A DNA stretch of 64,000 nucleotides from Verrucomicrobiia bacterium (GTDB lineage Bacteria > Verrucomicrobiota > Verrucomicrobiia > Limisphaerales > UBA1319), in the NCBI GenBank assembly GCA_963664225.1, contig OY760937.1, positions 1,504,001-1,568,000 on the forward strand, read 5' to 3'. The position numbers and the translations under genes were made by a program. The notes beneath the pieces were generated by a model that was not told the origin of the DNA, made no database searches, and saw only the letters and a program-made list of their open reading frames with translations. This document shows, one piece after another, positions 1 through 35,451 of the stretch (positions are counted from its first letter, which is position 1; every line of letters begins with the position of its first letter).

Positions 1-721
1 AGTGCTTGTTCGAGTGCAAGCGCGCAGGATTTAGCAGCGAGCGACAGAGCTGGACTTTGGAAGCCGTGTTATTCGACTGGCACCCATTCTGGCCTGCCGG
101 TCGGACTGCAAGCATTCCACCGCGTCCGTAGGCGCTCAACAGTATGGACACGGGACAGAAACCGCGGCAAAACGAGCGATCCATAAAGAAAAGTCCGACA
201 GCAAACGCAATGGTCAGAGAGGTCCAGAGAAACAAGGACGTATAATGGGGCACGCGATGGATTTGTACGCCGGGCACGAGCAACTGCAAGAAGGCGAACA
301 AGAGAACCACCAAACCGCCTGAGGCCAGCAAACGAGGAAGCGGACGCTGGCTGATTCCGAGTTTTTGGCCCATCCGTTCCGCCTGGAAGGAAACCAACTC
401 AAGCGGACAAACGATGCACCAAACACGCCCCACCAGGAATGTCACCCAGACGATACCAGGCCACCATAGGCCCCACATCGCCAGGCTTACCAGGTTGGTT
501 TTGGCGTAAAGTTTGGCATTAACATCGTTCGGTGTGTAAAGGCCCCAACCCATGATCGCTAATGTAGTGAACACCAGCAGCAGCAGCATTTGCAGCATGG
601 AGGGAAATGCCGACGACCCCACAACGCTTCGGACCGCACGGTATTTCAGCAAATTGAACCCGTGATCGATTGCAGGATTGTTGGATAACCGTGACTTGCG
701 TTTAGTGATGGCGCTGAGCAT
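1..721 (-). CDS. NapH/MauN-like 4Fe-4S-binding membrane protein (partial, runs off left edge)
   Basis: Not in the ORF track. Manual translation from ATG at 721 gives TM segments and two CxxxCP motifs (GRVWCIVCPLE, RSFCRGFCPV); no stop before the edge. Confidence 0.8.
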   Translation of the reverse strand, partial: MLSAITKRKSRLSNNPAIDHGFNLLKYRAVRSVVGSSAFPSMLQMLLLLVFTTLAIMGWGLYTPNDVNAKLYAKTNLVSLAMWGLWWPGIVWVTFLVGRVWCIVCPLELVSFQAERMGQKLGISQRPLPRLLASGGLVVLLFAFLQLLVPGVQIHRVPHYTSLFLWTSLTIAFAVGLFFMDRSFCRGFCPVSILLSAYGRGGMLAVRPAGQNGCQSNNTASKVQLCRSLLNPARLHSNKH

Positions 722-798
722 TGGATTATATCTTGAGGGAGTGTGAATGACATGCCGACCGAAAGGCAATATTCCCAGTTTGAGTGATTGATTGGCTT

Positions 799-1602
799 TT
801 AGGCCCCGCCGGTTCCCTGGATTCCCCCGCATTCCGGACATTCAGGATTGCGGCTAATGCGTATGCGCCGATGGCTCATATTCGACAGGTTCATGGAGAG
901 TAATATGCTGTAAAGAGGTTCTCCAAGGTGGCTGATCACTTTGATCGCCTCCATTGCACCCAGGCAGGCGACGGAACCTGAAACGGCTCCAAACACAGGG
1001 AACTGTCGTTTCCATGCCTGTGGTTGTTCCGGATAAAGGCAGCGAAGGCACGGCGTTTTTCCAGGAACAAATGTCGTGATGTGGGTTTCCAGTCCATACA
1101 TGGCACACTCGATCATTGGTTTGCGCTGAAGCACGGCTTCTCGATTCATGGCGAAGCGCTCTTCGAACAGGGGTGCACAATCGATGACGATATCTGCTGA
1201 CGAAACAGCTTGAGCAGCATTTTCCGGCGAAATGTTTTCGTTAACCGCCACAATCTCAACATCAGGGTTCAATTCGTGGATTCGCCGGGCGATGGATTCG
1301 ATGCGCGGTTTTCCCAGCCAGTCACGAGTCATGAGCAGTTGACGGTTCAGGTCCCCTGGCATCAAGTTGCCGCCGTGGTAGAGCACCAAACGCCCCACTC
1401 CGGCAGCGGCCAATTCATACGCGACAAGGCCTCCCAAACCGCCGCATCGTGAAATGAGCGCGGAAGCATTTTTTAGCTTGCGCTGCCCCTCCTCACCAAA
1501 ACCCGGAATCCACATTTGCCATTCGTAAATGGCGCGATCAAGATCAGTGAGCTCCCTGGTCGGTTGTGGTGTCCCCCTTTTCAAATTCTTCAATGCGTTC
1601 AT
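799..1602 (-). CDS. hesA: HesA/MoeB/ThiF-family E1-like adenylyltransferase (HesA-like)
   Basis: CGGLGG nucleotide-binding loop, DLNRQLLMTRDWLGKPR, two CxxC Zn motifs; no MoeB/ThiF crossover-loop Cys after CLRC. Confidence 0.85.
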   Translation of the reverse strand: MNALKNLKRGTPQPTRELTDLDRAIYEWQMWIPGFGEEGQRKLKNASALISRCGGLGGLVAYELAAAGVGRLVLYHGGNLMPGDLNRQLLMTRDWLGKPRIESIARRIHELNPDVEIVAVNENISPENAAQAVSSADIVIDCAPLFEERFAMNREAVLQRKPMIECAMYGLETHITTFVPGKTPCLRCLYPEQPQAWKRQFPVFGAVSGSVACLGAMEAIKVISHLGEPLYSILLSMNLSNMSHRRIRISRNPECPECGGIQGTGGA

Positions 1603-1877
1603 CCTCCGGACATGGGTGGCATCAGCGCAACAACGTCTCCATTGTTTAGCGAAGGTGGATTCCTGATGAAAATCAGATCATTGTTAATGGCAATCAATAT
1701 GGATGGACGAATTTTTCCGTCCGGGCAAAAGACAAGATTCGCCAAGGCCGCCCCTCGTTTTTCCGCCGCGGTGGCGAGCAACTCGAGTAATGAGCAATTG
1801 TCAGCGACCGTGCAGGTCTCTGAATTTGTTCCTGCTGCCGCATTTGCCTGCGCAATATAGTCGATCGTGATTTTCAT
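1599..1877 (-). CDS. MoaD/ThiS-family ubiquitin-like sulfur carrier
   Basis: 92 aa, C-terminal GDVVALMPPMSGG; 4-nt overlap with the E1-like gene. Confidence 0.9.
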   Translation of the reverse strand: MKITIDYIAQANAAAGTNSETCTVADNCSLLELLATAAEKRGAALANLVFCPDGKIRPSILIAINNDLIFIRNPPSLNNGDVVALMPPMSGG

Positions 1878-1890
1878 AGAGAAGCGCGCA

Positions 1891-2283
1891 TTATTTCCAC
1901 AGAATCAGCAACCCGGCTCCGACAATGAACACGGCAAATACTTTTCTAAGAATCTCGGCGGAGAGTTCGAACGCAATGGAGCTGCCAATATTTGCCCCAA
2001 CCACGGCGGCGGCAGCCAGCACCGCGACGATCCATGGATTGATCTTGATTGTTGGGTTGAGGCAATACCGGGTTGCGGCCATCAACACCATGGGAGCCAT
2101 GACGAGCAGCGACATGGCCTGCGCGGTTTTTTGGGAGAACACCAGAAAGTAAACCAGCGCCGGGATCATGATTATGGCGCTGCCGACTCCCAAACTTCCT
2201 GAAATCGTTCCTGCCACAAGTCCGATCAGCACAACCCAAATCCATTGCAGTGCGGTAAGCGTTGTCATGTCCTCTCCTTCCAC
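1891..2283 (-). CDS. TauE/SafE (TSUP) family membrane protein, half-size
   Basis: GTISGSLGVGSAIIMIP and SQKTAQAMSL motifs; about 4 TM helices in 130 aa. Confidence 0.8.
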   Translation of the reverse strand: MEGEDMTTLTALQWIWVVLIGLVAGTISGSLGVGSAIIMIPALVYFLVFSQKTAQAMSLLVMAPMVLMAATRYCLNPTIKINPWIVAVLAAAAVVGANIGSSIAFELSAEILRKVFAVFIVGAGLLILWK

Positions 2284-2326
2284 GAGCTTCGCAAAGCCTG
2301 ATCCGTTCTGTTTATTTTTATCTTAT

Positions 2327-3064
2327 TCATAGCTGGTTTTGATTGGTTTCAGTATTGCATCGGACCGCAGCCAGGATTTCCGTCTCCGACGGCTCGCGCA
2401 GTGTTTTCTTCACGACAGGCACCAGTTCGGATTCACTCACACGCCCATCATCAAGGCGGAACAATACATCGGCCAGCCTGGCCGCCTCGCTGCGACGATG
2501 TGTAACGTGCAGGATGGTGATGCGAGTTTCACGTTGAACACGATGAAGCAAATCAGCCAGTGGCTCGCGCGTGCCGTCGTCGAGCGCGGAAAGCGGCTCA
2601 TCAAGCAACAACACGCGGGGTCGGAGCGCCAGGGCCCGCCCCAGGGCGACCCGCTGACGTTCCCCGCCGGACAGGCCAACTGGGAGGCGTTCCAGCAAGG
2701 ATCCAATCCCCAGTTGATGTGCCAACTCCGTCACCTGGCCCGATATTTCATCGGGTGGACGATGACGCACGCGCAGGGCAAATCCAAGATTCTCACGCAC
2801 GGTCATGGTGGAAAATAAAGCGCCGTCCTGCGGAACATATCCCAGCCCGCGTTCACCAGGCGCCAGATGCGTGACTTCCCGTTCTCCCAAGTGGACGCGG
2901 CCGACATTGGGACGGCGCAGGCCGCAGATGATTTCAAGCAACGAGGTCTTGCCCCCGCCCGTGCGCCCCATCAGCACGCCATAGCTTCCGGTTGGCACAA
3001 GGAACGAAATATTCGCCAGGGCAAAGGCGCCGGCACTCCATGCAATGTCTTCCAGACGAATCAC
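2327..3064 (-). CDS. modC: Mo/W oxyanion ABC transporter ATP-binding subunit
   Basis: Walker A GRTGGGKT, LSGGERQR signature, LLLDEP Walker B; coupled to the permease. Confidence 0.85.
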   Translation of the reverse strand: MIRLEDIAWSAGAFALANISFLVPTGSYGVLMGRTGGGKTSLLEIICGLRRPNVGRVHLGEREVTHLAPGERGLGYVPQDGALFSTMTVRENLGFALRVRHRPPDEISGQVTELAHQLGIGSLLERLPVGLSGGERQRVALGRALALRPRVLLLDEPLSALDDGTREPLADLLHRVQRETRITILHVTHRRSEAARLADVLFRLDDGRVSESELVPVVKKTLREPSETEILAAVRCNTETNQNQL

Positions 3065-3843
3065 AGGCGCTCCCCCACGAGGCGGACGGTGGCGAGCACC
3101 ACCGTGGCAAGCGCCACCATTACCAGGCTCACCGCAATGGCGGCTTCAAGATTGCCCACACTCAGTTCCAGCCAGACACTGGTCGGCAGGACCTCGGTCT
3201 TCATCCGTGTGGCGCCGGCGAACACCAGAATCGGACCGAACTCCCCCAGGCTGCGCGCCCAGGCAATACTCGCCGCGGCAAACATCCCGTGTCGCGCCGC
3301 CGGCAGCGTCACCAGCCAGATCGCCCGCGCCCTGGTGCATCCCAGTGTAAGGGCCACATCCTCCGGACGCGCTGACAGATGCTCAAACGTCCCTCGCATC
3401 GTGCGAACCGCGAATGCCGCGCCGATGACGAACTGAGCCAGCACGACACCGCCAATGGTGTATGTCAATGGCACCACACGTTCAATGAGATGGCCCGCCA
3501 TGGTCTGAAAGAAGATCAGAAGGCAAAGCCCCACAACCATGGGCGGCAGCACGATGGGAATGTCGAGCGCGGCATCCAGCCAGGCGCGGCCCGGGAAACG
3601 GCCACGTGCCAGCAAATAGCCCACGGGCACGGCAAGCAGCAACGACAGCAGAGCGGTGAGGGTGCAACTGAGCAGACTCAGCCCGATGGCGTAACGAATT
3701 TCCCGTGTCCGCAGCGCATGCCACAGATCCCCGGGCGAACTATGAACGGCAGTGGCGCCGAGCAGTGCCATCCAGAACAAAAGGTAACTCCCGGTGATGA
3801 CGCCGAGTGCCAGCCACAAAGGATCGAATTTGGGCCGGTTCAC
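3061..3843 (-). CDS. modB: Mo/W oxyanion ABC transporter permease
   Basis: DIPIVLPPMVVGL, EDVALTLG (EAA loop), WARSLGEFG motifs of ModB/CysTW-type permeases. Confidence 0.85.
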   Translation of the reverse strand: MNRPKFDPLWLALGVITGSYLLFWMALLGATAVHSSPGDLWHALRTREIRYAIGLSLLSCTLTALLSLLLAVPVGYLLARGRFPGRAWLDAALDIPIVLPPMVVGLCLLIFFQTMAGHLIERVVPLTYTIGGVVLAQFVIGAAFAVRTMRGTFEHLSARPEDVALTLGCTRARAIWLVTLPAARHGMFAAASIAWARSLGEFGPILVFAGATRMKTEVLPTSVWLELSVGNLEAAIAVSLVMVALATVVLATVRLVGERL

Positions 3844-5390
3844 TGGGAGGCCTGTTTTGGATCGGCTTCGTCCGCCAGAAGCCAGTCTGGCACCTTGATG
3901 TCGGCGCTCTTGATCGCAGATTCACCCCTCCAGCGAAAGCCTGCGGTTTCAAAGCGCGCCTGGTGGGCTCGGAGAGAATCCAGTAATCGGGTGGCAAGCT
4001 GGCGGTGCTGTGAATCCCCGCGCACACTAAACGGCTGCACTGCCTTGGCTCCGGGAAGGTCGAGTTCCAGATAATCGAGATGATTGCTTTGAGGAGCAGC
4101 GTTCACTTGATAAACGATCGCCGCGTCCAGGGCACCTGCACGCAGTTGATTGATTAGAAAGTCTGCCGTGGGCACCTGGACGACAACATTCTTCTGAACG
4201 TTGGTTTCCAGATTCACACTGCGCAAAAGGCCGCGAGTGATGAATCCAAGCGTGCTTTGCTGCGCATTGCAAACGCCAACACGAAGCCCGGGTTGAGCAA
4301 GATCGGACAGAGTGTGAACCTGGCGCGGATTGCCCTTTTGCACCGCCAGTCCAATGCCAGTTTCCGTCAAAACCACCGCCTCAGGGAAATACCGGGCAAC
4401 GGGTGGCACAAAGCAGAGGTCGCAGGCATAATAGGCGTCAGGAAACTTCGGACTGCTTGCTTCAGCCATGGCCTTCATGGAGGCGCACAGCACTCCGCAA
4501 CCGTTGAAGACGGTGGTGACCTCCGCGCCTTCACGGTCGGCAAACTCACGAAGCAAACCCTCGATGGCCGGACGATTCACACCGCCACTGTATAGAATGA
4601 GCTCAGGCCGGGCCGCCCACTGGTCGCCTGTCACCGGGGATAACCCGCTCGTCTTGAAAACCACGCCTCCCTTCTCTGGTGCCGCCAGGTAACGGGCGAA
4701 ACGCAGCGCGGCGGCAGACTCCTGGGCAAAGCTCAACACCGCCACACTGACATTTTCGACACGCGCGGACAGTTCGGGCGCCTCCACGGCCTCCAGTCCG
4801 GGGAACAATGCCACTGTGGAATTCCAGACAATCGCCACATCCACCGCTCCAAGTTTCAGATCGTTCGCGATGTCCGCAACCGTGGGTTTCGTCACCACGG
4901 CATGTTCCGCGAGCGCAGGGTAATTCGTTCCCAGCGCGGCCTTCGTCGCCCGTCCCACACTGGCCGCTTCGGGATTCGCAAGCGCCACGCGCACCCCGTC
5001 ACGCCGAAGGTCATCCAGTGTCTGGATGTGCAATGGGTTTCCAGCCCGCACTGCAATGACCGGATGCTGGCGGGCGAGCGGAATGACTTCTTTGATGACT
5101 TCATACTTGCGCGCGTCGGCAAGGGCGCCGTCATCCGCGGCAATGAACAGGTCGCCTTTCTTGGCAACACGTATGTTCGCGAGTAGCGTGCCGGTGCCCC
5201 CATACTGCAGTTGCACCTCCACACCCGTCTCGACACGGTACTGCCCGGCAATCGTCTCAACCGGTTTCTTTAAACCTGCCGCGCAATAGACAACGAGCGG
5301 ATCGTCAGCCGCTGATGCCGACAAAACAAAGGCGGCAAGCGTGACACTGCAGGCCACATGCTTCCATATTATTGTGCTTATTATTTTCAT
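3840..5390 (-). CDS. modA: Molybdate/tungstate-binding protein with two tandem ModA-like domains
   Basis: Signal peptide; domain 1 YCAAGL..YGGTGTL..GNPLHIQTLDDL; domain 2 YSGGVN..FNGCGVL..GNPRQVHTLSDL; 516 aa, about twice ModA length. Confidence 0.8.
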   Translation of the reverse strand: MKIISTIIWKHVACSVTLAAFVLSASAADDPLVVYCAAGLKKPVETIAGQYRVETGVEVQLQYGGTGTLLANIRVAKKGDLFIAADDGALADARKYEVIKEVIPLARQHPVIAVRAGNPLHIQTLDDLRRDGVRVALANPEAASVGRATKAALGTNYPALAEHAVVTKPTVADIANDLKLGAVDVAIVWNSTVALFPGLEAVEAPELSARVENVSVAVLSFAQESAAALRFARYLAAPEKGGVVFKTSGLSPVTGDQWAARPELILYSGGVNRPAIEGLLREFADREGAEVTTVFNGCGVLCASMKAMAEASSPKFPDAYYACDLCFVPPVARYFPEAVVLTETGIGLAVQKGNPRQVHTLSDLAQPGLRVGVCNAQQSTLGFITRGLLRSVNLETNVQKNVVVQVPTADFLINQLRAGALDAAIVYQVNAAPQSNHLDYLELDLPGAKAVQPFSVRGDSQHRQLATRLLDSLRAHQARFETAGFRWRGESAIKSADIKVPDWLLADEADPKQASQ

Positions 5391-5414
5391 ATATATAATA
5401 TTCTATTGATATAG

Positions 5415-6344
5415 TCAGTGCGTGTGATCCTTCGGCTTGATAACGACAGTCTCCGGCTTGAGCGAATCATCCGCCTGAACTGCGGAGCCGGACGCCAAAC
5501 CACGTGCAGCACCGGCTTTCTTCAATTCCACATCCCAATCCACGCGCATAAGGAGATCCCAACCAGGATTTTGAGATTTGACTTCGCAAGAGCAGGAGCC
5601 GAGGAGAAATCGTGTCGCTTCCTCGACGAATTCCTCGGTCAACCGGTCATGCGGCCAGGCGCCAAGCACCCGGCCGCGGCCGAAAACCACGGCAACGAAC
5701 GGTTCTTCGGAAGGAAATGATTTCAATCCCGCCGGTCCGGCAAGCAGCGAAAGGAGCCCTGCTTCACTGGCATCGGACCTCTTGAGGCGCAGCAGGGATA
5801 GCTGCACCTTGAGCTCCGGCCCGGGACCCAGCCGGCTTTCGGGATCGCCGGGATCCAAAGGGGGCAGGCCGGAAGCCGATTCAAGGAAGCGCAGGCGCCC
5901 TTCCAGCAAGCGGACTGCTGCTTCATTTCGTTCCCGATCACTGCCCTCGACGAGCACCCAAACTCCAGAATCACCGGCCAGGATTCGTCTTTTCAAATCC
6001 TGCCGGGCCGGCGAGTCTGTGAGAGTGCGATAAACCGCCGGGGTAAGTTCTCCCTCCCAAACAGGCGTCGCAGCGCCACGAACATGAGATGGAAAGAACA
6101 ACCGCGTCCCATTGGTCGAGACGGTGGTTTCCAGGTTCACGCCAGAGCTGCCGTTCAAATTCCGGAACTCCGCGGCCAGCGGTTCCGCATGCAGAACCGC
6201 TGCCGATGCCTCGAGTCGAAATGCGTCCGCCGGCCATCGATCCAACGCGTAGCGAAAGACTGGAATATCGCAGCCGAACACGGCTGGCATGCCGAGCATC
6301 AACGCTAGGGCAAGACTGGTGGTTTTGGAGGTTGTCCGTAGCAT
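5415..6344 (-). CDS. Exported hypothetical protein with N-terminal CxxPVFRYALDRW and CSC motif
   Basis: Signal peptide, CDIPVFRYALDRWPAD, GSCSCEVKSQNPGWDLL; overlaps the 3' end of the propeller gene. Confidence 0.75.
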   Translation of the reverse strand: MLRTTSKTTSLALALMLGMPAVFGCDIPVFRYALDRWPADAFRLEASAAVLHAEPLAAEFRNLNGSSGVNLETTVSTNGTRLFFPSHVRGAATPVWEGELTPAVYRTLTDSPARQDLKRRILAGDSGVWVLVEGSDRERNEAAVRLLEGRLRFLESASGLPPLDPGDPESRLGPGPELKVQLSLLRLKRSDASEAGLLSLLAGPAGLKSFPSEEPFVAVVFGRGRVLGAWPHDRLTEEFVEEATRFLLGSCSCEVKSQNPGWDLLMRVDWDVELKKAGAARGLASGSAVQADDSLKPETVVIKPKDHTH

Positions 6345-9300
6345 TTGATTTTTCCGTCTGTGGTTACAATAAAGATGCGGCCTTGGGCGACCGAGACGCC
6401 ATCCCAGACCGGCGGGCTGTCAATGGTAAAATCACGCGCGACCTGACCATTGCCGGAATTGAAGATTTTCACCAGCGCCCCGCGCTTGCCGCTCAAGCTC
6501 GCATCCTGTTCTTCCAGTTCCTTTTGAACGGTTGGATCCTTTTTGGTGAGCCTCTCAAACATTTGCTCTTCATTGACGAGATCCGGGGGGCCCGCAACGA
6601 CAAGGTTGGTGCCGGACATGGAAAAACCACGGGTCGAAATGGGGACATAGGCGGCCCAGTCGTATTTCACAAAGGTGCCTGCGCCAGCCTGGGCTTTGGC
6701 GGCTCCCGCACCACCGGCACGACGCGCCAACTTGTTGGTTCCACCGACAGAGGGCGTAGTCGCGTCCGGCGTGTTGGTCACCTGGCTGGCACCCTCTACC
6801 GCCGCCGCCGCCAGGGCTCCGGATCGATTTAAGTCACCCTGGTCCTGAGGCAGGGGAATTGCCGATGCAACGCCGGGGGCCGGATTTGTCGAACCAGCCA
6901 CAACGGGTGGAGTCAATTTATGAAACCACAAGGCCGCGCCATTCCTGCCCTTGCCCACATCCACTCCGGTGAGCACCCCATTGATGCCGTTGGTGGATTC
7001 GTCACGGGCGTCGTTGTTGTTGAAGGAATAGGCGACGACCGCATTACTGGCGGACCGGGCATCCGCCACCAGGGAACGAGCCTGAATTTCCTCCGTGCTG
7101 AGGGCGCGATAATAAATCGCAACTTCGTCAAGCAATCCCGCATAAGGATTGTTTTCCTCGTAGTCACCCACCGAGCCGGCGGAATCCACGCCGAACTCGA
7201 GAGGTTGAGCCGGCTTCGAATCGAGCAGGGAGGTGGCAGTGCCGGAGTTGACGAAATGGCCGTCCACGTAAAGACGAATGGCGCGGTCGGTATCCAACAC
7301 GGCCGCCAGATAATGCCAGCCTTCGCCAAGGGGTGAGAGGGCCGGCACCGATACGAGATCTCCCCCGTTGCGGATGTGAAAGACCGGGGTGCCATCACGC
7401 AAGGAGAGCGCATAACCGTAAGCTGGGCCGCCATGAGCGAGAATGACACCATTGGCGTTGTCCGGCAGAACCCAGGCTTCGACGGTAATCGCCTTGCCGG
7501 CTGGATTCAACCGCTCGTCATCAGGAAACCTGACGCCGGGAAAATCGACTTCAAGGTTAACCTGGGCGTTCGTGGCTCCCCCACCCTGGCGATTGCGCCG
7601 GTTGGCCGCCCTGTTCGGGGTTGCGAGTTGCGGTTTCACGTCCGGAGCCACGCGACTGGATGAGAACAACTGATTCTGCATCGTTGTTGTCCATTTGAGA
7701 TATTGCGGCTCCCGGCCATAACCGAAGACTTTCTCATTGTCGAACACCAGCATGCGCCCGGCGGGAGCATATTTACCGGCTTGATAGTAGCCGTTGTGGC
7801 CTCCGGCAAAGTTTTTGCCAAAGACCCAATAACTGCGATGGAAAAGCGCCTCGTCCAGAAAACCAATGGGCGAGAAGAGGTGAGCGCCTTCACCTTGTTG
7901 GGCGGCGCCCTGCTCCACCGCGTTGCCGGACACAGGGCCGATATCCACGCGTTTGCCGTCCGGGCCAATTTTCTGGCTGCGCAGGTAAGTCCATTTGCCA
8001 TCACTCACCAGGATGTCGTTCAGGCCAACCGGCATTTGCAGGGTCTTGATCCGCAATTGAAGATCGCCGCCGGTCTCGGGATCTGTCTTGTCGTAGAGTT
8101 GTTCCACCAGCTTGCTGCCAGTGGCGGCATCGAGTTTGAAAAAGCGCAAACCGCCATCGAGGAACACAGACCGGCCGGTCACAAAACTGACCTGGCCATT
8201 TTCCACCAGCACGCTGCCAGGCACCGGCCAGACACTCTCAAGTTGTTCAAATGCAAACAATCGCTGGTCGGGATAGGGTCGATAACGCCATGCCAGGACG
8301 CCATCCGTCGCACGCAACGCATAGACGCTGCCATCACGGCTGCCGAAGAGCACGCGGCCCTTCCAATAGGTGGGCGGCGAATCCACACGTCCACCCGTGA
8401 TGAAATGCCAGAGCGGCCTGCCACTGTTAAGATCGAGGGCGTAAATGGTGCCCGTGTCAACCTGCGCGACAAAGGCTTTTCCATTGGCCACTGTCAGCGC
8501 GCTTAATTGGCCGCCAAGAGGAATATCCCATGCCTGTGACAGATCCTCACTCAGAGACTGATCCGAGAAGCCGCTGCGTTGGCTGTCATGCCGATACGTC
8601 GGCCAGTCGAGCGGCCCTGGTTCGACTCCGAGCGGAGAGTCGTAAGCGGGTCCCCGTTCAAGCCTTTGATCGTCAGGCAGTAAATTGGCGGACTGGCTGG
8701 CACGGTGAGGAGCCAGGGCGTTGAGACCGTCCAGCTTCGCCTCGGGATAGCACGCGCAGTTGTGCGGCCCGGCATAGATCAGGCCGTTGGCGGGCATGGA
8801 ACCGTAAAGGCAGGCGGCGCGCACCCAGTGGTTAATCTCCCAGTGTTTGGCCCTGAAATCCACAAATTCAATTCCGGTGCGGGATGGGATGATGAAGCGT
8901 TCGGTGGCCTTGGCCATATAGCAGCGATGGTGAAACCAATAGGTGTCCACGTCGGGCAGAAACCGGCTCTTGATCTCACCCGTTTCTGGATCGCGGCCGA
9001 TGAATTCACCGGACATGTTTCCAGAAATCGTCGGCGCATTCCAGAGCAGCCCGCCAGCCAGAATCAAATCCTCCGGAGAGCGGTAGCCCGATTTGCTATG
9101 GGGCGCGGTCCACAGCTCTTTTCCACTTCTGGCATCGAAGCTTTTCATCGATCCGTCACCGCCTGCATAGAGGACCAGGTTGCTGCTCAGGAGCACCCGC
9201 GGGCCAAAGTTGTATTCGAAGAGCTGGCGTCTGCCAGCCGGTTGACTGGCCCAGAGCTGATCTCCGGTTTTCGGATCCAGGCTGACGAGCTTTTCTCCAT

Positions 9301-10549
9301 CATGATACACGAGGCGTTGGCCATCGGCCGCCAGCGTCAGCGGCGCCACTTTGCCCTCCTTTTTCCAAAGCAGCCGTCCGGTGGCCGCCTCCACAGCCTG
9401 CAAGTCACGCGGTTTTTCATCCCAGTCGAATTCGGTCTCCACCCGTTTTTGATCGCCTGTATTGAACTTGGGCGCAAAGTCTTCGAGGGTCCAATTGCGT
9501 GGATTGACAAGCACGTAAAGAACACCGTCCACGTTCAGGATTTCCTCGGCGCCTTTTGTATTCTCGTAAACTCGGAGAGTGCGGCCAGTGGCCCCGTCCA
9601 GTTTGCTGACGGGCGCATCGATGGACAGGGTGACATAAACATTATTACCCTCGGCCACCAGCCGCCGGGCAAGCTGTGTGGGTCCGGACTTCAACGGCCA
9701 CAGATGCGGCTGCCAGTGGGGAATTTCGTTGGTCCACAAGATGGTCCCATTGAAAGCATCGCGCGCCGTAAGCACCCAATGGGCCGGTAACAAAACTGAG
9801 GTGCGGGAACCCTGATCCATGATATAGAAAAGCCGCCCCCCCGCCGATACCTGGGCGCTGAGGCTTGACATGCGGTCGTGATGCCGGGACCAGCGCGGAC
9901 TGCCAATCCACTGGTAGCCTTCGGGCGAAGCCACCTGCAAATCCCGCGATACGGCATTGCCTTTCGCGTCGTAGAAGTAATGGGTCCAGTCGTCAATATC
10001 CGTGGGACGAGGCTTCACAAGCTTGCGCCATTCCCCACCCTCCTTGTAATAGGCAATGCCGTTGGGAACCAGCACGCGGATTATTTCATCGCGAGAAACG
10101 CCGTCCAGGTTTTCAGCGACAAGCAGATTGACCAGATTATCGATGTAAGGCAATGACCCCGGGCGCCAAAGATCAACCGTGACCTGACCGTTTAACTTTT
10201 CTGAGAGCAGCCATTCGCGAGCCGACTGGACTTTTGCAGCATCGCGCTCCAGACCCTGAACCTGATAGCTCACGTTCCGCCGCAGAGCTGCGGTCAATTG
10301 GCCGTCGCCGGCTCCCAGATGAACGACGAAACCGCCCTTCACGCCCGTTTCCTCAATGATCCGGGCTGACTCCGCCTCCGCGGACGGACTCACCGCAAAT
10401 GCAGTGGAAGCCCCGATGGCGATTGCCGCAATGCCTGCCGCAAGGAAGCGACGCAGCGAGAAGTGATGGTATGACTTTCGCCTGAGAGGCGAATCCAACA
10501 AAACAGTATTCAGTGGTATTTGCATGGGCGCGTTTTCAATTCCAATCAA
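6305..10549 (-). CDS. Large exported protein: SAM-methyltransferase-like N-domain, PQQ-like beta-propeller repeats, inserted LamG domain
   Basis: VVHLGAGDG Rossmann-like motif; repeated DAxTGxxLW blades; WPTYRHDSQRSG; HHRCY/RAAC/HNCAC cluster; LamG signature GWHYLAAV..LYVDG..GLLDEVAIY. Start may be ATG 10525. Confidence 0.85.
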   Translation of the reverse strand: MIGIENAPMQIPLNTVLLDSPLRRKSYHHFSLRRFLAAGIAAIAIGASTAFAVSPSAEAESARIIEETGVKGGFVVHLGAGDGQLTAALRRNVSYQVQGLERDAAKVQSAREWLLSEKLNGQVTVDLWRPGSLPYIDNLVNLLVAENLDGVSRDEIIRVLVPNGIAYYKEGGEWRKLVKPRPTDIDDWTHYFYDAKGNAVSRDLQVASPEGYQWIGSPRWSRHHDRMSSLSAQVSAGGRLFYIMDQGSRTSVLLPAHWVLTARDAFNGTILWTNEIPHWQPHLWPLKSGPTQLARRLVAEGNNVYVTLSIDAPVSKLDGATGRTLRVYENTKGAEEILNVDGVLYVLVNPRNWTLEDFAPKFNTGDQKRVETEFDWDEKPRDLQAVEAATGRLLWKKEGKVAPLTLAADGQRLVYHDGEKLVSLDPKTGDQLWASQPAGRRQLFEYNFGPRVLLSSNLVLYAGGDGSMKSFDARSGKELWTAPHSKSGYRSPEDLILAGGLLWNAPTISGNMSGEFIGRDPETGEIKSRFLPDVDTYWFHHRCYMAKATERFIIPSRTGIEFVDFRAKHWEINHWVRAACLYGSMPANGLIYAGPHNCACYPEAKLDGLNALAPHRASQSANLLPDDQRLERGPAYDSPLGVEPGPLDWPTYRHDSQRSGFSDQSLSEDLSQAWDIPLGGQLSALTVANGKAFVAQVDTGTIYALDLNSGRPLWHFITGGRVDSPPTYWKGRVLFGSRDGSVYALRATDGVLAWRYRPYPDQRLFAFEQLESVWPVPGSVLVENGQVSFVTGRSVFLDGGLRFFKLDAATGSKLVEQLYDKTDPETGGDLQLRIKTLQMPVGLNDILVSDGKWTYLRSQKIGPDGKRVDIGPVSGNAVEQGAAQQGEGAHLFSPIGFLDEALFHRSYWVFGKNFAGGHNGYYQAGKYAPAGRMLVFDNEKVFGYGREPQYLKWTTTMQNQLFSSSRVAPDVKPQLATPNRAANRRNRQGGGATNAQVNLEVDFPGVRFPDDERLNPAGKAITVEAWVLPDNANGVILAHGGPAYGYALSLRDGTPVFHIRNGGDLVSVPALSPLGEGWHYLAAVLDTDRAIRLYVDGHFVNSGTATSLLDSKPAQPLEFGVDSAGSVGDYEENNPYAGLLDEVAIYYRALSTEEIQARSLVADARSASNAVVAYSFNNNDARDESTNGINGVLTGVDVGKGRNGAALWFHKLTPPVVAGSTNPAPGVASAIPLPQDQGDLNRSGALAAAAVEGASQVTNTPDATTPSVGGTNKLARRAGGAGAAKAQAGAGTFVKYDWAAYVPISTRGFSMSGTNLVVAGPPDLVNEEQMFERLTKKDPTVQKELEEQDASLSGKRGALVKIFNSGNGQVARDFTIDSPPVWDGVSVAQGRIFIVTTDGKIKCYGQPPKPPVLP

Positions 10550-10552
10550 GGC

Positions 10553-10643
10553 CGTTTGGGAACCATTCCCAAACGAACGGGAGGAGTCATGCGCGCCCCT
10601 GGAGAGGTAGCAACCGAATCATTCCCAGACCGCAAGTATGGCT
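10553..10643 (-). ncRNA. Candidate Moco/Tuco-type cis-regulatory RNA (P3-less variant)
   Basis: Minus strand AGCCAU..GCGGUC-UGGGAAUGAUUC-GGUUGC..CCAGGGG..CUCCUCCCG..UUUGGGAAUGGUU: closing stem AGCCAU/AUGGUU plus internal hairpins. Resembles my recollection of the E. coli moaA leader; lies upstream of mod/moaD-like genes. No covariance model run. Confidence 0.45.
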
Positions 10644-10657
10644 GCACACAGCAGCCT

Positions 10658-10680
10658 ATATACGATGTATATTATCGTCT
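10658..10680. promoter_or_regulatory. Putative operator ATATACGAT-N7-ATCGTCT
   Basis: One of 5-6 intergenic copies of the same spaced imperfect palindrome. Confidence 0.55.
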
Positions 10681-10881
10681 TTTATATCGGTGTCAATCCC
10701 ATGCGTGATATATTTTTTGCATTCGATAATCTCACCGATCCAATTCAGCATCTCAGTTACACAACCGTTCTTATTATATTGTATTACAATTGTTTATATT
10801 GCTACTGCAAAAGCGTTCACGCGGTCTTCAGGGTGTGGATTCTGTGGAATGATTTCTTTCATGGATTGGCGTACATGCCTT

Positions 10882-10905: not shown

Positions 10906-11667
10906 TTATCTGTCTGCTATCCATTGGATCTGGTCTTTCTTAACCCAGCCTGAATCCCCCGTGCTTAGGCAGAGAAAAAGGTAATCGCCTCGCGCAAACT
11001 GACAACGGCCCACCTCCCCGGCGGGAATGCGCGTGAGAACCTGTGCGTGGCTCGTGGGAGTCTGGCAGAGCGGCGTTCCGGGCTTTAATACGACACCCAG
11101 ACTTGTGCGCGTGTGAATCCCCACCATACCGGGAATCGCCAACAGAAATATTCCGAATCCGATCGCTGCAAAGGACTGCGTCCAGGATGATCCGCGCAAT
11201 CCAAAGAGAACTGGCAAGACAAAAGCCAGTGTGACCGCAAGCCAGAAACTAACGGCTCCCACACAGGCCCATGCATCCACCGGCAGCCACGTGGAGAAGG
11301 TTTCCCACCAACGCAAGGATGGTTCGGCCAGTTGGCCCGAACGCCGGGCATACCGCAGGCTGGCGCTGGCAGCCTTATCCAATGGACTAATCCACAATGC
11401 ACGCTCCCAAGCCAGGATGGCTGTGCCGGAATGACGGCATTCCCATTCTGCGTTTCCAAAATTGTGCCACGCCTCAGCGGAAGGCGATTGCTTGATTTCC
11501 ACGGCAAACAACTTCGCAGCCTGGGCAAACTCCCGCGCTTCGTAAGCAGCACATCCCCGTTCAAAGATGTTTGTTTCGCCTTTTACGCCAAAAGTGGTAA
11601 TCGTCCAAATCAGGCCGGTCATTATAACGGCCATGCCGCGCGTAAACCTGAAAATGAGGGTCAGCAT
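10906..11667 (-). CDS. batE: BatE-like TPR / TM / SH3-like protein
   Basis: AWHNFGNA..AILAWERAL TPR, two TM helices, C-terminal GWVKKDQI SH3-like end; last gene of the Bat cluster. Confidence 0.75.
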   Translation of the reverse strand: MLTLIFRFTRGMAVIMTGLIWTITTFGVKGETNIFERGCAAYEAREFAQAAKLFAVEIKQSPSAEAWHNFGNAEWECRHSGTAILAWERALWISPLDKAASASLRYARRSGQLAEPSLRWWETFSTWLPVDAWACVGAVSFWLAVTLAFVLPVLFGLRGSSWTQSFAAIGFGIFLLAIPGMVGIHTRTSLGVVLKPGTPLCQTPTSHAQVLTRIPAGEVGRCQFARGDYLFLCLSTGDSGWVKKDQIQWIADR

Positions 11668-13496
11668 AGACGCCTCCTCATTTGGGCAAGCAAGGTCTCC
11701 AATTCAGGTTGGAGCGACCACAGCATTTCCGTTCTTTTTGATTTACCTTCAAATGCGATTTCATCCGCGACCAAAAACAACTGGCGCACCAGAGTGCCCG
11801 CCTGCCCCTCACAGTCTGCATGCGGCAAAGCACGTATGATGTCGCTGCACACCAACGCCCCGGGACTGGCATGCAAATGGGGCGCGCCAGCCTCACGCAA
11901 TGAGGCGATTGCGGACCGAGCATACACCACCACATCATGGTCCCTGATCGCTCGACGGCGAATCCGTTCCAGGCGCCGAAGCTCACGGCGCGCCCGGGCA
12001 AATCGGACGATCTCCGGATGTGCTCTCAGAAAATGTTTGCGGCGATTCCACCCACAAAAAGCCGCCAGCACCAAGCCCGGGAATAATTGGAACAACCAAA
12101 AGGCCGGACGTTGCTGGAATGCCAACAATCCGGCACTGAAATGCACCGGGCGACGCGCAAGCGGACCCAACCCATCCAAATCGTGACCGGCAGGATTATC
12201 AACATTTGCACCCATCGCGTTCGCAGGCTGAAGCTGACCTGAGGCGCTGCCCCCCGGTGATGCCAGAACCAGTATCTGAGTTGAAGGAATCGTCAAGTCC
12301 ACATAGATCTGCCGTTCCGGATCGAAGCAGCTGAATGGTATCCTGGGCGTTCCCGTCATTCCCGGCTTCAGTGGAATCATGGTGTAATGAAACACGTTAC
12401 TGCCACGCTGCCAGATGCTGGCAGGCGGATTCACATCGGCGACGGCTGGAAACACCCTCCAACCTGGCGCATGTTCGACGCGCGGAGGTATCAGGCGCCC
12501 ATGGTTTCCCTCCCCACAAACCGTGATAGCCAGATCAAGGGGATCACCGGCATGAACTTCACGAGCCGAGGGTCTCGGCGAAGCCACCTCAAATTTGCCT
12601 ATCAATCCCGTAAACCCGGGCAGAGCACCATCGGGGAGATGCTTGACGACAATCTCCACCGGACTGGATTCCAGAAAGGGGCGATATCCAGCCAGCCGTA
12701 TGCTTTGCGGATCGGCGGTCGGACGACATTCCACAAAAGCCTGGCCATTGAGCGCCAGACGCCCTTCACGAACGGGAATGGCGATGACTTCGGCAATCGA
12801 TGCCGAAACAGATCGTCCGCCAACCGTGCGCATTTCACGTCGCAGCGAGCCCGTCACCCGATCAAACAGAAAGGCATCGCCAAGCAGCGTCGGATCCACC
12901 AGGCCAAAAACACCACTGTCTCCCGGATCGAGCACCACAATTCGCACGGGAATGGCCTGGGCAACATAAAAATCCCCATCAGGAATTTCGAGATGCAAGG
13001 AGGCGGCATGTCTGGCTTCAGGTGAACCGGCGGGGACCACCGTAAGGACCCGTGATGGCGCCACGAGCCGTCTTCCGCCAGCCTTCAACTCGAACGGACC
13101 AATTGGAAACGATCCCGGTGTCTGGGCAATCACACGATAGTTGAATGTGGCACGGTATTGAGACACCTGCCCTTTCGTCACAACGGATCTTCCAACGCCA
13201 CTTTTCGCAAGCTCAAGCCCCGGCGGCACGGGAATGCGTTCAGGCAAATCAACGGCATCCGGCTCCGTGGTGATCACCACCCTGTAGGTGGCTGGTTCTC
13301 CCGCAGCCACCACCAACGGATCAAAACCCGCAGCCACCACCACGTCCGATTCCACCGCCGCCTGCCGCAGCAACTGTGACATGGCGGAATTAAGCGGTGT
13401 GGACTCCGTATGGACAGGCGGATCCGGCGCTGGAAAAACCATGCACTCCAACACGAGAAGTCCGCCTGTAACAAGTGAAAGATATCGCGCAGTCAT
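11661..13496 (-). CDS. batD: BatD-family protein
   Basis: Beta-rich repeats, GFTGLIGKFEV, GDPLDLAITVCGEGN, IPFSCFDP, C-terminal TM; cluster position. Confidence 0.8.
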   Translation of the reverse strand: MTARYLSLVTGGLLVLECMVFPAPDPPVHTESTPLNSAMSQLLRQAAVESDVVVAAGFDPLVVAAGEPATYRVVITTEPDAVDLPERIPVPPGLELAKSGVGRSVVTKGQVSQYRATFNYRVIAQTPGSFPIGPFELKAGGRRLVAPSRVLTVVPAGSPEARHAASLHLEIPDGDFYVAQAIPVRIVVLDPGDSGVFGLVDPTLLGDAFLFDRVTGSLRREMRTVGGRSVSASIAEVIAIPVREGRLALNGQAFVECRPTADPQSIRLAGYRPFLESSPVEIVVKHLPDGALPGFTGLIGKFEVASPRPSAREVHAGDPLDLAITVCGEGNHGRLIPPRVEHAPGWRVFPAVADVNPPASIWQRGSNVFHYTMIPLKPGMTGTPRIPFSCFDPERQIYVDLTIPSTQILVLASPGGSASGQLQPANAMGANVDNPAGHDLDGLGPLARRPVHFSAGLLAFQQRPAFWLFQLFPGLVLAAFCGWNRRKHFLRAHPEIVRFARARRELRRLERIRRRAIRDHDVVVYARSAIASLREAGAPHLHASPGALVCSDIIRALPHADCEGQAGTLVRQLFLVADEIAFEGKSKRTEMLWSLQPELETLLAQMRRRLC

Positions 13497-13501
13497 TTTA
13501 A

Positions 13502-15457
13502 TTACCAGGTGCGGCCTGCGCGATTCTGACGATCGTTCGGCAAATTACCCGCGGAGTATTGGCGGCTCAAATCCAGTCGGAGTGAGGACAGAAGTCGCAT
13601 GGCCTCTTCCGGGGTCAGAACCAGTTCTTTGCCGTTATCGCCCTTGTTCTCCTGATCGTCAGGTTTGGACGACTGGCTGGGGTCACGCGAGTCATCATCG
13701 TCGGCGCCGTGTTCGCCCTTGCTCTCCTCGGGCGGCAGCCGTCGTTTGAGTGCATCCAGAAATTTCTGCAAGTCCGCTTTCCTGGCGGCGACCGCATTCC
13801 TAATCTCCTGGATCTTCCATTGTTCATTGGTCAGTTCCACGACATGCCGGTCCACAGCGGCCGCATTCAATCTGGCATTTTCGTAACCGACCCGAAGTTC
13901 CATCGCACTCCTGAAGTCATTTGCAGCGCGTTGCCATCGCAACAGCACGGCACCACAAGCATCCGAGCTGCCTTTGATGGCATCCAAAACCTGCTTGAGA
14001 CTCTTTGATGTCGCACGCCCCGTCCGGTAGGCCGCCACAACCGCCTTTATGTCGCCGCCCGCCAAAGCGGTTTCCGCCGACTTGATGGCTGAATCGGCGG
14101 ATTGAATCCCCTGCTCGCTCCGCGCCTCCAATGCGTCTGAAGCCAATGAGCCTTTCAACGTTTCCATCCCGGCGCGAAACCGGACTTGGGCCAGATTGTA
14201 AAGTGCCAGTGGTTGGATCTCCGCATCGTTGCTGTTGACGGCAGCGTCCAATGCCGCTTCGGCCTCACGCCACCGGCTTTCACGCAAGTTCTGCGTGCCA
14301 AGGTTGAACAAGTGACGCGCCGATCGCGGCAGCTCCGGTTGATTCCCTGCGCCGTGCGCCGCCAATGCCCATCCGAATGTGAGCGCCATCACAGACGGGA
14401 GGACTTTGACTGCCTGGCGGCGTAATCCGGCGCCAGTCCATTCTGGCCGTCGGGTTCCCAGCAGAGATTGTACAATCAACAGGATCAATCCCAAGGCCAC
14501 CGGAACATGGAAATGATCCACCCCTTCCCGGCGGGTGGCCGCGAACCGTGCAAATCCATCCCTATCCTCAAGCGTTTGGCGGACGCGGTCCAATCCGTCG
14601 CCCAACATGCCCAAGGGTTGATAACTTCCGTGTCCAGCCTCGGCAATCGCGCGCAGTGTCGGCTCATCAAGTCGGCTGCGTACGGGCTGCCCCTGTTCGC
14701 TGCGCAACAATTCGCGCTTCCCGGATGGATCGGCGATGAGCAGTTCGCCGCCAGTCGGCGTCCCAACGCCAACCGTGAAAATCACCACATTCGTCATTGC
14801 CAGGGCTCTGGCCTGGGCCACACTGGTTTTCTCCAAATCTTCTCCATCGGATACCAGGACGAGAATTTTTCGCCGCCCGTTCTTATCCACCGCGGAATAG
14901 CCTTCTTTCAGGGCACGACCAATATCCGTTCCCAAAGCGGGAATGGCGCGCTCATCCACCGCCTGCAAGGCTTCTCGAAACGCATCGTAATCGAACGTCA
15001 ACGGGCACTGTAAAAAGGCCTGCCCTGCGAACGCCACCAGACCAACCCTTCCCTGTCCGGATTTCTGCACGAACTCCTGAATCGCCATCTTCGCCCGTGC
15101 CAGACGGCTCGGAGTCACGTCCGTGGCGAGCATGCTTTGCGAACAATCCAGGAGAAATACGACATCCTCTCCAGCCGATTCGCTACTCTCCGTTTGCTCG
15201 CCCCACTGTGGACGTGCAAGTCCGAAACAAAGGCAAGCCACCGTCATGACCTGGAGTATATTCTTTAGGAAACTCCTCCCACGACTGTGCGATGTCTGCA
15301 TTGCCTCCAGAATTGACGGAGAGGCCAGTCGCGCGATCTGGCGCCGACGGACCCGACCGGCATGAACCTGGAGCATCACCAGCAACAGGGGTGCAGCCAG
15401 TGCAATCCAGAGCCACGCTGGCGATGCAAAATGCGGGTGGGCAAAGTGATCGGTCAT
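13502..15457 (-). CDS. batB: BatB-like VWA domain fused to TPR (BatB/BatC-like)
   Basis: LARPQWG, MIDAS DCSQSM, VGLVAFAG..CPLTFD, SDGED, TPR ALYNLA; ATG 15457 chosen. Confidence 0.85.
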   Translation of the reverse strand: MTDHFAHPHFASPAWLWIALAAPLLLVMLQVHAGRVRRRQIARLASPSILEAMQTSHSRGRSFLKNILQVMTVACLCFGLARPQWGEQTESSESAGEDVVFLLDCSQSMLATDVTPSRLARAKMAIQEFVQKSGQGRVGLVAFAGQAFLQCPLTFDYDAFREALQAVDERAIPALGTDIGRALKEGYSAVDKNGRRKILVLVSDGEDLEKTSVAQARALAMTNVVIFTVGVGTPTGGELLIADPSGKRELLRSEQGQPVRSRLDEPTLRAIAEAGHGSYQPLGMLGDGLDRVRQTLEDRDGFARFAATRREGVDHFHVPVALGLILLIVQSLLGTRRPEWTGAGLRRQAVKVLPSVMALTFGWALAAHGAGNQPELPRSARHLFNLGTQNLRESRWREAEAALDAAVNSNDAEIQPLALYNLAQVRFRAGMETLKGSLASDALEARSEQGIQSADSAIKSAETALAGGDIKAVVAAYRTGRATSKSLKQVLDAIKGSSDACGAVLLRWQRAANDFRSAMELRVGYENARLNAAAVDRHVVELTNEQWKIQEIRNAVAARKADLQKFLDALKRRLPPEESKGEHGADDDDSRDPSQSSKPDDQENKGDNGKELVLTPEEAMRLLSSLRLDLSRQYSAGNLPNDRQNRAGRTW

Positions 15458-15458
15458 G

Positions 15459-17050: not shown

Positions 17051-17052
17051 GA

Positions 17053-31116: not shown

Positions 31117-31224
31117 AACCAGTAGGGAAAAAAGGAATCGTTTATTAAATTGAGATTGTTGATTGGAGCTGGAGTTTGCATTCAACCCCAGCCCATCATT
31201 TTTAAGTGAGGAGTGTTCGGGAGT

Positions 31225-35168: not shown

Positions 35169-35451
35169 GTCACGCACTGAAACAATTGACCGGACCGAAT
35201 CAAGCGCAGGGATTGAATCCTGGCTGGCTGAAGTCCAGAACCGGGTCCACTCCATCCAATATGGCCTCGTTCAAATTACGCTTCACGAGGGTCGGGTGAC
35301 TCAGATTGATGCCACAGAGAAAATGAGAATTCCCTGGGAGGGTGCCCAGTCAGAGGACCGACGCCTCAACGGGAGGCCGGCAGGCGACCAGATGACTCCA
35401 TTGAACGAAATGAAGCGTCTCTCTGCTGCGCTGACGGACAAGAACATCTAA
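35167..35451 (+). CDS. YezD/DUF2292 (OscA-like) small protein
   Basis: [36 protein letters not shown]; family typically precedes sulfur-uptake genes; TAATG overlap with cysT. Confidence 0.8.

Follow-up and report, generated by a model that had tools for sequence, protein, structure and literature searches.

The metal centre of nitrous oxide reductase (NosZ), an exported propeller enzyme, has His ligands and a bridging sulfide and is assembled in the periplasm. Its assembly set (NosDFY, NosL and NosR/NosH) supplies an ABC transporter, an accessory protein of the periplasm and a membrane Fe-S protein of the NapH type. A locus of similar outline is found in the genome of a verrucomicrobium (G000; one contig, 5.78 Mb), at the left end of the 64,000-nucleotide stretch analyzed here (G000:C1:1504001-1568000, hereafter the window). 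A giant exported propeller protein with invariant His and Cys residues is encoded there together with a protein bearing a C-S-C motif (the CSC protein), a Mod-type ABC importer, a half-size TauE protein, a ThiS-type sulfur carrier with its ThiF-type activating enzyme (E1), and a NapH-like protein. The genes that accompany the propeller gene are a variant of a conserved eight-gene unit, the module, found across Planctomycetota and Verrucomicrobiota, in which transporters for import and export are joined to a periplasmic Cys protein and a sulfur-carrier pair of the cytoplasm. This module is strongly associated with the family of propellers that share the His/Cys motif, as gene order shows in Verrucomicrobiota and genome content in Planctomycetota. 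The full-text literature searched, which does not include subscription journals, yielded no paper on it.

The likeness to the NosZ system lies in the kinds of protein that accompany an exported propeller (ABC transporter, periplasmic accessory protein, NapH-type protein) and does not extend to the families involved: there is no Nos family among the Pfam matches of the nine cluster proteins and no cupredoxin domain, the ABC systems are a Mod-type importer and an FtsX/LolD-type exporter, and the NapH-like gene is not conserved. Like ModABC (TIGR01256, TIGR02141, and TIGR02142), the importer has its genes in mod order, for a binding protein (SBP_bac_11), a permease (BPD_transp_1) and an ABC ATPase, but its binding protein is a tandem of two domains with invariant Cys and scores only marginally as ModA, its permease and ATPase fall below the modB and modC cut-offs, and the ATPase has no C-terminal domain. 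The small carrier ending in GG, beside a ThiF-family E1 with two C-x-x-C pairs, recalls the MoaD-MoeB, ThiS-ThiF and CysO-MoeZ pairs; unlike them, it forms with its partner the third and lowest-scoring E1 and carrier of the genome, is always tied to transporters and a periplasmic Cys protein, and has no MoaE, ThiG or CysM-type partner synthase in any module examined. The propeller shares its fold (Foldseek E 3e-15 to 1e-13) and Pfam PQQ_2 with tetrathionate hydrolase, BamB and pyrroloquinoline quinone (PQQ) dehydrogenases, but the TM-scores are 0.19-0.27 on the query, and the His/Cys motif has no counterpart in any matched family model.

A conserved module and its association with the propeller family

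A first-pass annotation made from the sequence of the window had described nine co-oriented, overlapping or closely spaced genes, and this arrangement was confirmed: nine open reading frames (ORFs), all on the minus strand, fill window positions 2-10549, the last one crossing the left edge. Their junctions are overlaps of 4, 4, 4, 40 and 43 nt and gaps of 13, 24 and 43 nt, and because they overlap or leave 43 nt at most, the nine genes are one operon, built from two units, the conserved module and the propeller protein. In window coordinates and starting from the propeller gene, the operon contains the following genes.

6305-10549, minus strand: giant exported protein of 1414 aa, with a signal peptide, a methyltransferase-like domain, propeller 1 with the His/Cys motif, propeller 2, LamG and a C-terminal blade-like segment
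5415-6344, minus strand: CSC protein of 309 aa with a signal peptide, the start of its gene overlapping the end of the giant gene by 40 nt
3840-5390, minus strand: tandem ModA-type binding protein of 516 aa, with two SBP_bac_11 stretches
3061-3843, minus strand: ModB-type permease (Pfam BPD_transp_1)
2327-3064, minus strand: ModC/WtpC-like ABC ATPase of 245 aa, without a C-terminal regulatory domain
1891-2283, minus strand: half-size TauE/TSUP membrane protein of 130 aa (Pfam TauE profile)
1599-1877, minus strand: ThiS/MoaD-family carrier of 92 aa, C-terminus GG
799-1602, minus strand: ThiF-family E1 of 267 aa, with C-x-x-C ... C-x-x-C and without a rhodanese domain
2-841, minus strand: NapH-like polytopic Fe-S membrane protein (Fer4_5), the N-terminal 280 of its 514 aa lying inside the window and the remainder to the left

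Pfam and NCBIfam matches agree with the gene labels that the first-pass annotation had given, apart from the subtype of the E1, which it had called HesA: the protein can be placed in the ThiF family but no finer, all MoeB/ThiF equivalog cut-offs being missed and no HesA-specific model being among its NCBIfam matches.

Synteny was examined in 38 loci from one genome per species, with the window proteins compared by tblastn (E <= 1e-3, at least half of the query covered). The CSC gene is next to the giant gene in 18 of the 29 loci with at least 1.5 kb downstream and is also present at two more loci with shorter flanks. By taxonomic label, this neighborhood is found in 17 of 18 Verrucomicrobiota loci, where the junction is kept at 47-75% protein identity, in 1 of 10 Planctomycetota loci (a Tepidisphaeraceae metagenome-assembled genome [MAG]) and in 0 of 1 Armatimonadia. 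Where the flank downstream of the giant gene reaches 6 kb or more (27 loci), CSC and tandem ModA are each present in 16, ModB in 13, ModC and ThiF in 11 each, ThiS in 7, and TauE in 1. These counts make the loci look more independent than they are, since close relatives from Roseibacillus and Akkermansiaceae supply about nine of the positive ones. The place of ThiF varies, being downstream of ModC in some lineages and, together with ThiS, divergently upstream of the giant gene in Roseibacillus. Conserved synteny was what the earlier proposal of a dedicated system had been made to depend on, and the module is indeed conserved. The NapH-like protein, which had been included in that proposal as electron donor, is not conserved: its gene is in none of the 38 related loci (0 of the 27 with at least 6 kb downstream). 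Two locus labels, Armatimonadia (L029) and Klebsiella (L036), clash with the otherwise exclusive distribution of close homologues in the Planctomycetes-Verrucomicrobia-Chlamydiae group, and these contigs are probably mis-binned.

The module also exists away from the propeller gene. For genomes whose giant gene stands alone, CSC is encoded elsewhere in all five tested, and these stand-alone CSC genes adjoin an FtsX permease and an ABC ATPase, tandem ModA, or ThiF. Five further Planctomycetota genomes all have CSC, FtsX, a LolD-like ATPase, tandem ModA, ModB and ModC within 20 kb, joined in four of the five modules by ThiS and ThiF, and the genes occur in three different orders. Within Verrucomicrobiota, one genome (G085) has two full copies of the module, each opening with a rhodanese-bearing MoeZ-like E1 and closing with ThiF and ThiS; beside the MoeZ-like gene that opens one of them, a canonical ModA-ModB fusion and a full-length ModC are encoded in divergent orientation. 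Another (G094; 2.2 Mb, 95% complete) has a module in which CSC, two FtsX genes and an ABC ATPase are accompanied by tandem ModA, ModB and ModC, the half-TauE gene behind them encoding a protein with 45% identity to the window copy; the giant homologue of this genome is on a different contig. Within this module, tandem ModA is separated from the exporter genes by a gene with a TonB-dependent receptor plug domain (L065 4240-6207). At the core of the module are CSC, tandem ModA, ModB, ModC, ThiS and ThiF, and most genomes add an exporter of the FtsX/LolD type. The window operon is a variant that has half-TauE and the NapH-like gene in place in the run and does not have the FtsX/LolD exporter.

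Genome content was examined in 151 evenly drawn Planctomycetota genomes at E <= 1e-8, the completeness of these genomes not being given. CSC was found in 17 and the propeller motif in 22; 17 genomes have both, none has CSC alone, and 129 have neither. Many motif-positive genomes encode several motif proteins, with up to 10 matches. The second half of tandem ModA was matched in 21 Planctomycetota genomes; 12 tandem-ModA genomes have matches at E <= 3.1e-35, a line set after the list was seen, with open frames of 509-584 aa, and 10 of these have CSC and the motif, one the motif only, and one neither. A corresponding set of 201 evenly drawn Verrucomicrobiota genomes is too poor in the system for a useful table, with CSC in 6. 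The full giant core is present in only two of them, the window's own genome and G094, while the matches of two other genomes cover no more than about profile positions 397-656. Besides the window's genome, five Verrucomicrobiota genomes are CSC positive, and two of these (G094 and G013) have the motif.

The motif protein of G013 is a domain-permuted giant relative of 1346 aa, encoded just downstream of CSC (L068 121-4158), in which the W, H, R and four Cys of the motif are kept. Another permuted member of the giant family, divergently oriented, likewise adjoins CSC and the module in G248 (L072, about 4995-7250). Both have the second-propeller-like part first and the His/Cys core later.

Sequence features of the propeller, its partners and their genomic background

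The giant protein contains the following segments.

10010-10387, minus strand: methyltransferase-like domain, about residues 55-180 (Methyltransf_25)
8600-8992, minus strand: invariant motif stretch, W-F-H-H-R-C-Y ... C580 ... H-N-C-A-C-Y, residues 520-650 (alignment A3)
7670-8611, minus strand: second PQQ_2/BamB-like propeller, about residues 647-960
7082-7537, minus strand: LamG (Laminin_G_3) module, residues 1005-1156 (E 1.6e-22, 80.7 bits, cut-off 27.6)

Only five Pfam families match the giant at E <= 0.01: PQQ_2 (E 6e-31), Laminin_G_3, Beta-prop_ACSF4, PQQ and Methyltransf_25, the last of them weakly (E 0.0015; 19.7 bits, cut-off 27). None of the Mo/W enzyme families PF00384, PF00174 and PF02738 was matched in the same scan, and the score against the PQQ-dependent dehydrogenase model TIGR03075, 37.5 bits for a cut-off of 480, places the protein outside that family. 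In the methyltransferase-like domain, G-x-G-x-G-like and LPYxDN motifs are partly conserved and a His takes the usual acidic position; the domain is exported and thus away from cytoplasmic S-adenosylmethionine.

Three alignments were used, of giant residues 180-965 (A1), of the CSC protein (A2) and of the motif stretch with one distant relative added (A3). Invariant in the giant are His 190, 223, 224, 540, 541, 574, 890 and 904 and Cys 543, 580, 598 and 600 (32 full-length sequences, that is, 31 homologues and the window copy). Within the motif stretch, the W, H, R and four Cys are constant in all 17 rows of A3, the permuted relative in L068 included. At E <= 0.001, a profile of the motif retrieved 1,795 clusters (50% identity), of which 979 reach E <= 1e-10. 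PQQ_2 is present in 40 of 40 long family members scanned, a methyltransferase family in 14 and Laminin_G_3 in 10 (E <= 1e-5); single members carry an F5/8 type C, ricin-type lectin, PKD or HZS_alpha domain, and the lectin-type accessory modules suggest glycan-directed proteins. Tat export of the giant, conceivable from the S-L-R-R-F-L of the window copy, was dropped because the RR motif is missing from the other N-termini.

An AlphaFold model of residues 180-965, built from 26 aligned sequences, has a mean predicted local distance difference test (pLDDT) score of 67. Foldseek with the propeller model returned only generic propellers, with tetrathionate hydrolase best and BamB and PQQ dehydrogenases about equal, and a sequence search of solved structures found only BamB-type repeats and tetrathionate hydrolase at E 9e-5.

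Some members of the family occur in unusual arrangements. Four to five giant paralogues stand in tandem in L016 1-14781 and L029 6591-19605, and the L016 array ends at a CSC module. A giant homologue in a chromosome-level Tepidisphaeraceae MAG is split over three consecutive ORFs of 709, 491 and 211 aa (L022 9710-13844), which points to frameshifts or assembly errors. Small BamB-like propellers beside modules in L059 and L066 were left uncounted because they have no His/Cys motif; the one in L066 (17786-19993, genome G085) is a 735-aa PQQ_2 propeller that adjoins the module and has Cys-Cys pairs at 516/517 and 603/604.

The CSC protein matches no family in Pfam and NCBIfam scans. It has at least 872 relatives, all unnamed or called "hypothetical," and its homologue P0019 in the Protein Atlas retrieves only unnamed clusters and one automatically named "Lipoprotein family." Cys 25, 251 and 253 are invariant in 27 aligned sequences, the latter two forming the C-S-C at 251-253. 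Cys 25 opens the motif C-x-[VI]-P-V-F-R-Y-A-L-D-x-W and is probably the first residue of the mature chain, because it comes immediately after the hydrophobic leader. A C-terminal transmembrane helix is present in most members but not in the window copy. The predicted structure (pLDDT 79.6) is a tandem thioredoxin-like fold: residues 109-261 superpose on thioredoxins with Z 10.9 and a root mean square deviation of 2.6 A over 102 aligned residues, and the best Foldseek matches are the bb' domains of ERp57 and PDI. There is no Cys after strand 127-133 (helix from 137) and so no C-x-x-C at the usual thioredoxin active-site position. When CSC (residues 25-290) and propeller 1 (residues 180-699) were modeled as a complex, two runs scored 0.00, which weighs neither way on binding.

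As for the importer, only the first half of tandem ModA matches TIGR01256, and this half aligns with solved ModA proteins (E 6.8e-11; 9wgd, 1amf, and 4xxu). Cys 36, 298 and 323 are invariant in 23 sequences, while Cys 302 and 326 are both present in 17 and both missing in 6, as would be expected of a disulfide pair. By our reading of alignments judged by eye, Cys 36 and Cys 298 would lie in loops matching the anion-binding loops of ModA, given the roles that we take the E. coli ModA residues to have. The permease has its best hit in the NifC-like porter model TIGR01581, at 190 bits below the cut-off of 210.3, and scores 129.9 bits on the NCBIfam sulfate permease versus 155.2 on modB. The ATPase is nearest to WtpC and ModC and matches only ABC_tran in Pfam. 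Half-TauE scores 64.8 bits on PF01925 (cut-off 32.6) but covers only profile positions 2-109 of 237, and two copies of a protein of this half size would have to join. In L041, the closest relative of the window locus, TauE is followed by a sulfatase-like fragment.

The carrier, which ends in SGG, is a ThiS/MoaD-family protein by its 30.6 bits on PF02597 (cut-off 22.5), and the E1 scores 176.3 bits on PF00899 (cut-off 28.1). The NapH-like protein stays far from the NapH/MauN model TIGR02163 (41.3 bits, cut-off 213) and barely passes Pfam Fer4_5 (24.5 and 22.8 bits, cut-off 22).

The rest of the genome shows that these functions are covered elsewhere. A canonical block of moaD, moaE, moeA, moaC, mog and moaA, with moaD beside moaE, lies at 4.432-4.436 Mb, and a canonical modA at 4.420 Mb, with a ModB-like match just downstream, scores 209.6 bits versus 62.7 for the cluster ModA in the same search. 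Two ThiF genes outscore the cluster copy (2.471 Mb and 1.570 Mb, the latter adjoined by ThiS), and the genome encodes a MoeZ-like E1 outside the cluster. Judged by their sequences, the cluster importer, carrier and E1 are additional diverged copies and not the housekeeping ones, since canonical modA, moaD and thiF/thiS sets exist elsewhere in the genome. Two proteins of the xanthine dehydrogenase (XDH) family with MoCoBD domains are encoded; the sulfite-oxidase family has no match in this genome, and the sole PF00384 match is a protein with NuoG-type domains beside other NADH dehydrogenase genes. Two nif-type clusters (G000:C1:3855154-3861590 and 5767372-5773807) each hold four Oxidored_nitro genes with near-equal scores; the organism probably fixes nitrogen and has its nif region in duplicate.

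The window had been described as free of moa, moe, nif and molybdenum cofactor (Moco) enzyme genes, and this agrees with the whole-genome family searches, which hit only the cluster ThiF, ThiS and ModA there, although not every ORF of the window was scanned against Pfam. A nif or molybdoenzyme cluster just to the left, which would have accounted for the mod and E1 genes, was not found either: past the NapH-like gene there are only insertion sequence (IS) or phage integrase, helix-turn-helix (HTH) and PIN genes.

Possible functions of the module

How might these components work together? The scheme that we favor, as a possibility still short of probable, is a line of import, sulfuration and re-export that serves the periplasmic His/Cys site of the propellers by way of CSC, because it is the simplest one that gives every part a task. 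The importer would bring a tetrahedral oxyanion (molybdate, tungstate or sulfate class) into the cytoplasm, where the ThiS thiocarboxylate, made by ThiF, would give sulfur to the oxyanion or to a product derived from it. The exporter (FtsX/LolD, or TauE in the window's genome) would return the product to the periplasm, and the Cys triad of CSC would receive it and then load or maintain the His/Cys site of the propeller. That metal import and sulfur relay serve the propeller protein had already been proposed in the first-pass annotation; the dedicated extra copies and the invariant His and Cys residues speak for this part, whereas no motif propeller was found in three of the five CSC-positive Verrucomicrobiota genomes besides the window's own (G040, G085, and G145). 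If the module does serve the propellers, a ubiquitin-like sulfur carrier combined with an importer and an exporter would be a new route to a periplasmic cofactor, and the module would give a first functional handle on a never-studied giant exported family of about 1,800 clusters, multicopy in Planctomycetota. Even on modest readings, this is a conserved eight-gene unit in two phyla with no described function, and in a verrucomicrobium that probably fixes nitrogen it supplies a third E1/carrier pair and a second Mod-type importer.

Besides the modules without a propeller, several observations weigh against the import and re-export scheme. The N-termini of the giant family are short Sec-type signal peptides; because the propeller is Sec exported, every cytoplasmic step needs an assumed export of its product. 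The window operon itself is missing the FtsX/LolD exporter, and half-TauE was seen in only three places (the window's genome, L041 and G094, after ModC in the latter two). NCBIfam scores are marginal or below cut-off: tandem ModA passes the TIGR01256 cut-off of 62.5 bits with 79.5 for the whole protein and marginally with 62.7 in the six-frame search, the permease stays below modB TIGR02141 (155.2 bits, cut-off 182.6), and the ATPase reaches 169.2 bits on TIGR02142 (cut-off 285) over model positions 10-213 of 353. The carrier likewise falls below the MoaD equivalog TIGR01682 (37.5 bits, cut-off 66.15) and the E1 below the cut-off of every MoeB, ThiF, MoeZ and UbaA model (best 185 bits versus 449). 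Five of the 22 motif-positive Planctomycetota genomes have no CSC match; moreover, the genome searches scored only part of the first-look candidates, and related genomes are not independent. The propeller model drops below a pLDDT of 50 exactly at the three motif stretches, leaving no readable site geometry, and the lectin-type modules would fit a carbohydrate-active enzyme that has no need of such a cofactor.

A more specific form of the scheme is distinctly unlikely in our view. Here the line would be a molybdopterin-independent one, in which a Mo/W-type oxyanion is imported, sulfurated by the ThiS thiocarboxylate, re-exported and passed by CSC to the His/Cys site at the propeller hub, making the propeller a new Mo/W-sulfur metalloprotein. 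The nearest families and the neighborhood of the module in G085 point to Mo or W as the anion, and the 95% complete G094, which has both propeller and module, gave no MoaC, MoeA or nitrogenase match, which argues against an ordinary Moco supply role. On the other side, a simple Mo enzyme does not sit well with the His-rich site, the lectin modules and the marginal ModA score, and we know of no Mo/W site that looks His-rich, which counts against the metalloprotein claim. The earlier suggestion of a new Mo/W(-S) class, possibly pterin independent, therefore gains from G094 and loses from Sec export and the marginal ModA score. If true, Planctomycetota and Verrucomicrobiota would possess extracellular metal-sulfur enzymes of a new class.

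Alternatively, the module might capture a product of the propeller. An extracytoplasmic, glycan-directed propeller might free a sulfur oxyanion (sulfate, thiosulfate or sulfite), which the module would import and fix via ThiS, exporting the surplus by TauE or FtsX/LolD. The relatives bearing LamG, F5/8 type C, ricin-type lectin or PKD modules (40 proteins) would suit such an enzyme, as would tetrathionate hydrolase as the best structural match of the propeller, though BamB and PQQ dehydrogenases match about equally; SBP_bac_11, ModB-type permeases and TauE belong to groups that also handle sulfur oxyanions, and the sulfatase-like fragment after TauE in L041 is of the same bearing. What makes capture of a released product unlikely is that no thiocarboxylate-using assimilation enzyme of the CysM, MetY or ThiG type was seen in any module, that the binding protein scores far better on modA than on sulfate-binding models, and that CSC and the exporter would be left without a role while the module occurs without the propeller.

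This last point raises another question: does the module need the propeller at all? G085 encodes two complete modules and zero motif propellers, it has canonical modABC adjoining the module, and nitrogenase genes are present both there and in the window's genome. The module could then be a self-contained system for acquisition, storage or detoxification of Mo/W or thiometallates on behalf of cytoplasmic clients (nitrogenase and Moco enzymes), with propellers placed behind its promoter for regulation or by insertion. We consider such independence rather unlikely, because CSC-only genomes number 0 among the 151 Planctomycetota, the giant-CSC junction in 17 of 18 Verrucomicrobiota loci at 47-75% identity is thus no recent insertion, and two permuted members of the propeller family also adjoin CSC; in addition, G094 has the module but no MoaC, MoeA or nitrogenase match.

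The structure of CSC brings up a role in thiol chemistry, for which the propeller enzyme arylsulfate sulfotransferase, with its dedicated DsbL/DsbI pair, is a precedent. CSC might be a PDI-like partner that forms, isomerizes or keeps reduced the four Cys of the propeller, and the transporters might move a small redox-active sulfur compound that maintains the state of CSC. The tandem thioredoxin-like fold, with ERp57/PDI bb' matches and thioredoxins at Z 10.9, and an invariant C-x-C in both CSC and propeller are in line with this; the usual active-site position without C-x-x-C is not, and a ModA-type importer and a ThiS/ThiF pair belong to no known thiol-redox shuttle, so that periplasmic thiol care appears very doubtful. 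Finally, it is hardly credible that canonical synthesis of Moco or iron-molybdenum cofactor (FeMo-co) is all that the mod genes and the E1/carrier pair supply, as chance neighbors of unrelated secreted proteins, even in a genome that makes Moco (moaD, moaE, moeA, moaC, mog, and moaA) and has two XDH-family proteins and two nif clusters, since canonical modA/modB, moaD and MoeB/ThiF-type genes elsewhere have much higher scores and both synteny and co-occurrence are conserved over two phyla.

A promoter-like site and flanking genes

A possible start of transcription lies upstream of the giant gene.

10669-10696, minus strand: promoter-like site (TTGACA, 16 nt, TAATAT), a consensus match only

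This site has 10 of 12 consensus matches and is the best of 8 sites in the region, for which shuffles yield 4.2 +/- 2.1 sites; terminator-like sites in the region are no commoner than in shuffles.

The NapH-like gene at the other end of the run was gained in the window's operon and, by position, is co-transcribed here. Its neighborhood to the left of the window (L009, G000:C1:1489001-1506000) is a mobile-element island with an rve-type transposase (IS type), a phage-type integrase, an HTH repressor-like protein and a PIN protein, which may explain why the gene is present only here.

Directly upstream of the operon, a Bat/MoxR-type operon on the minus strand (window 10906-19007) encodes a TPR protein, BatD, a VWA/BatA-domain protein and more ORFs. 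Bat/MoxR genes also precede the giant gene in L041, together with an AAA_3/bpMoxR ATPase; they were dropped as members of the system because they are kept only in this closest relative. Farther into the window, an ORF of 2332 aa occupies 24187-31185 on the minus strand. ModB-like permease matches at 35697-37033, with ~28-35% identity to the cluster ModB, fall in two adjacent plus-strand ORFs (35451-36290 and 36260-37189); they belong to a further ABC importer within the window whose permease is of this class.

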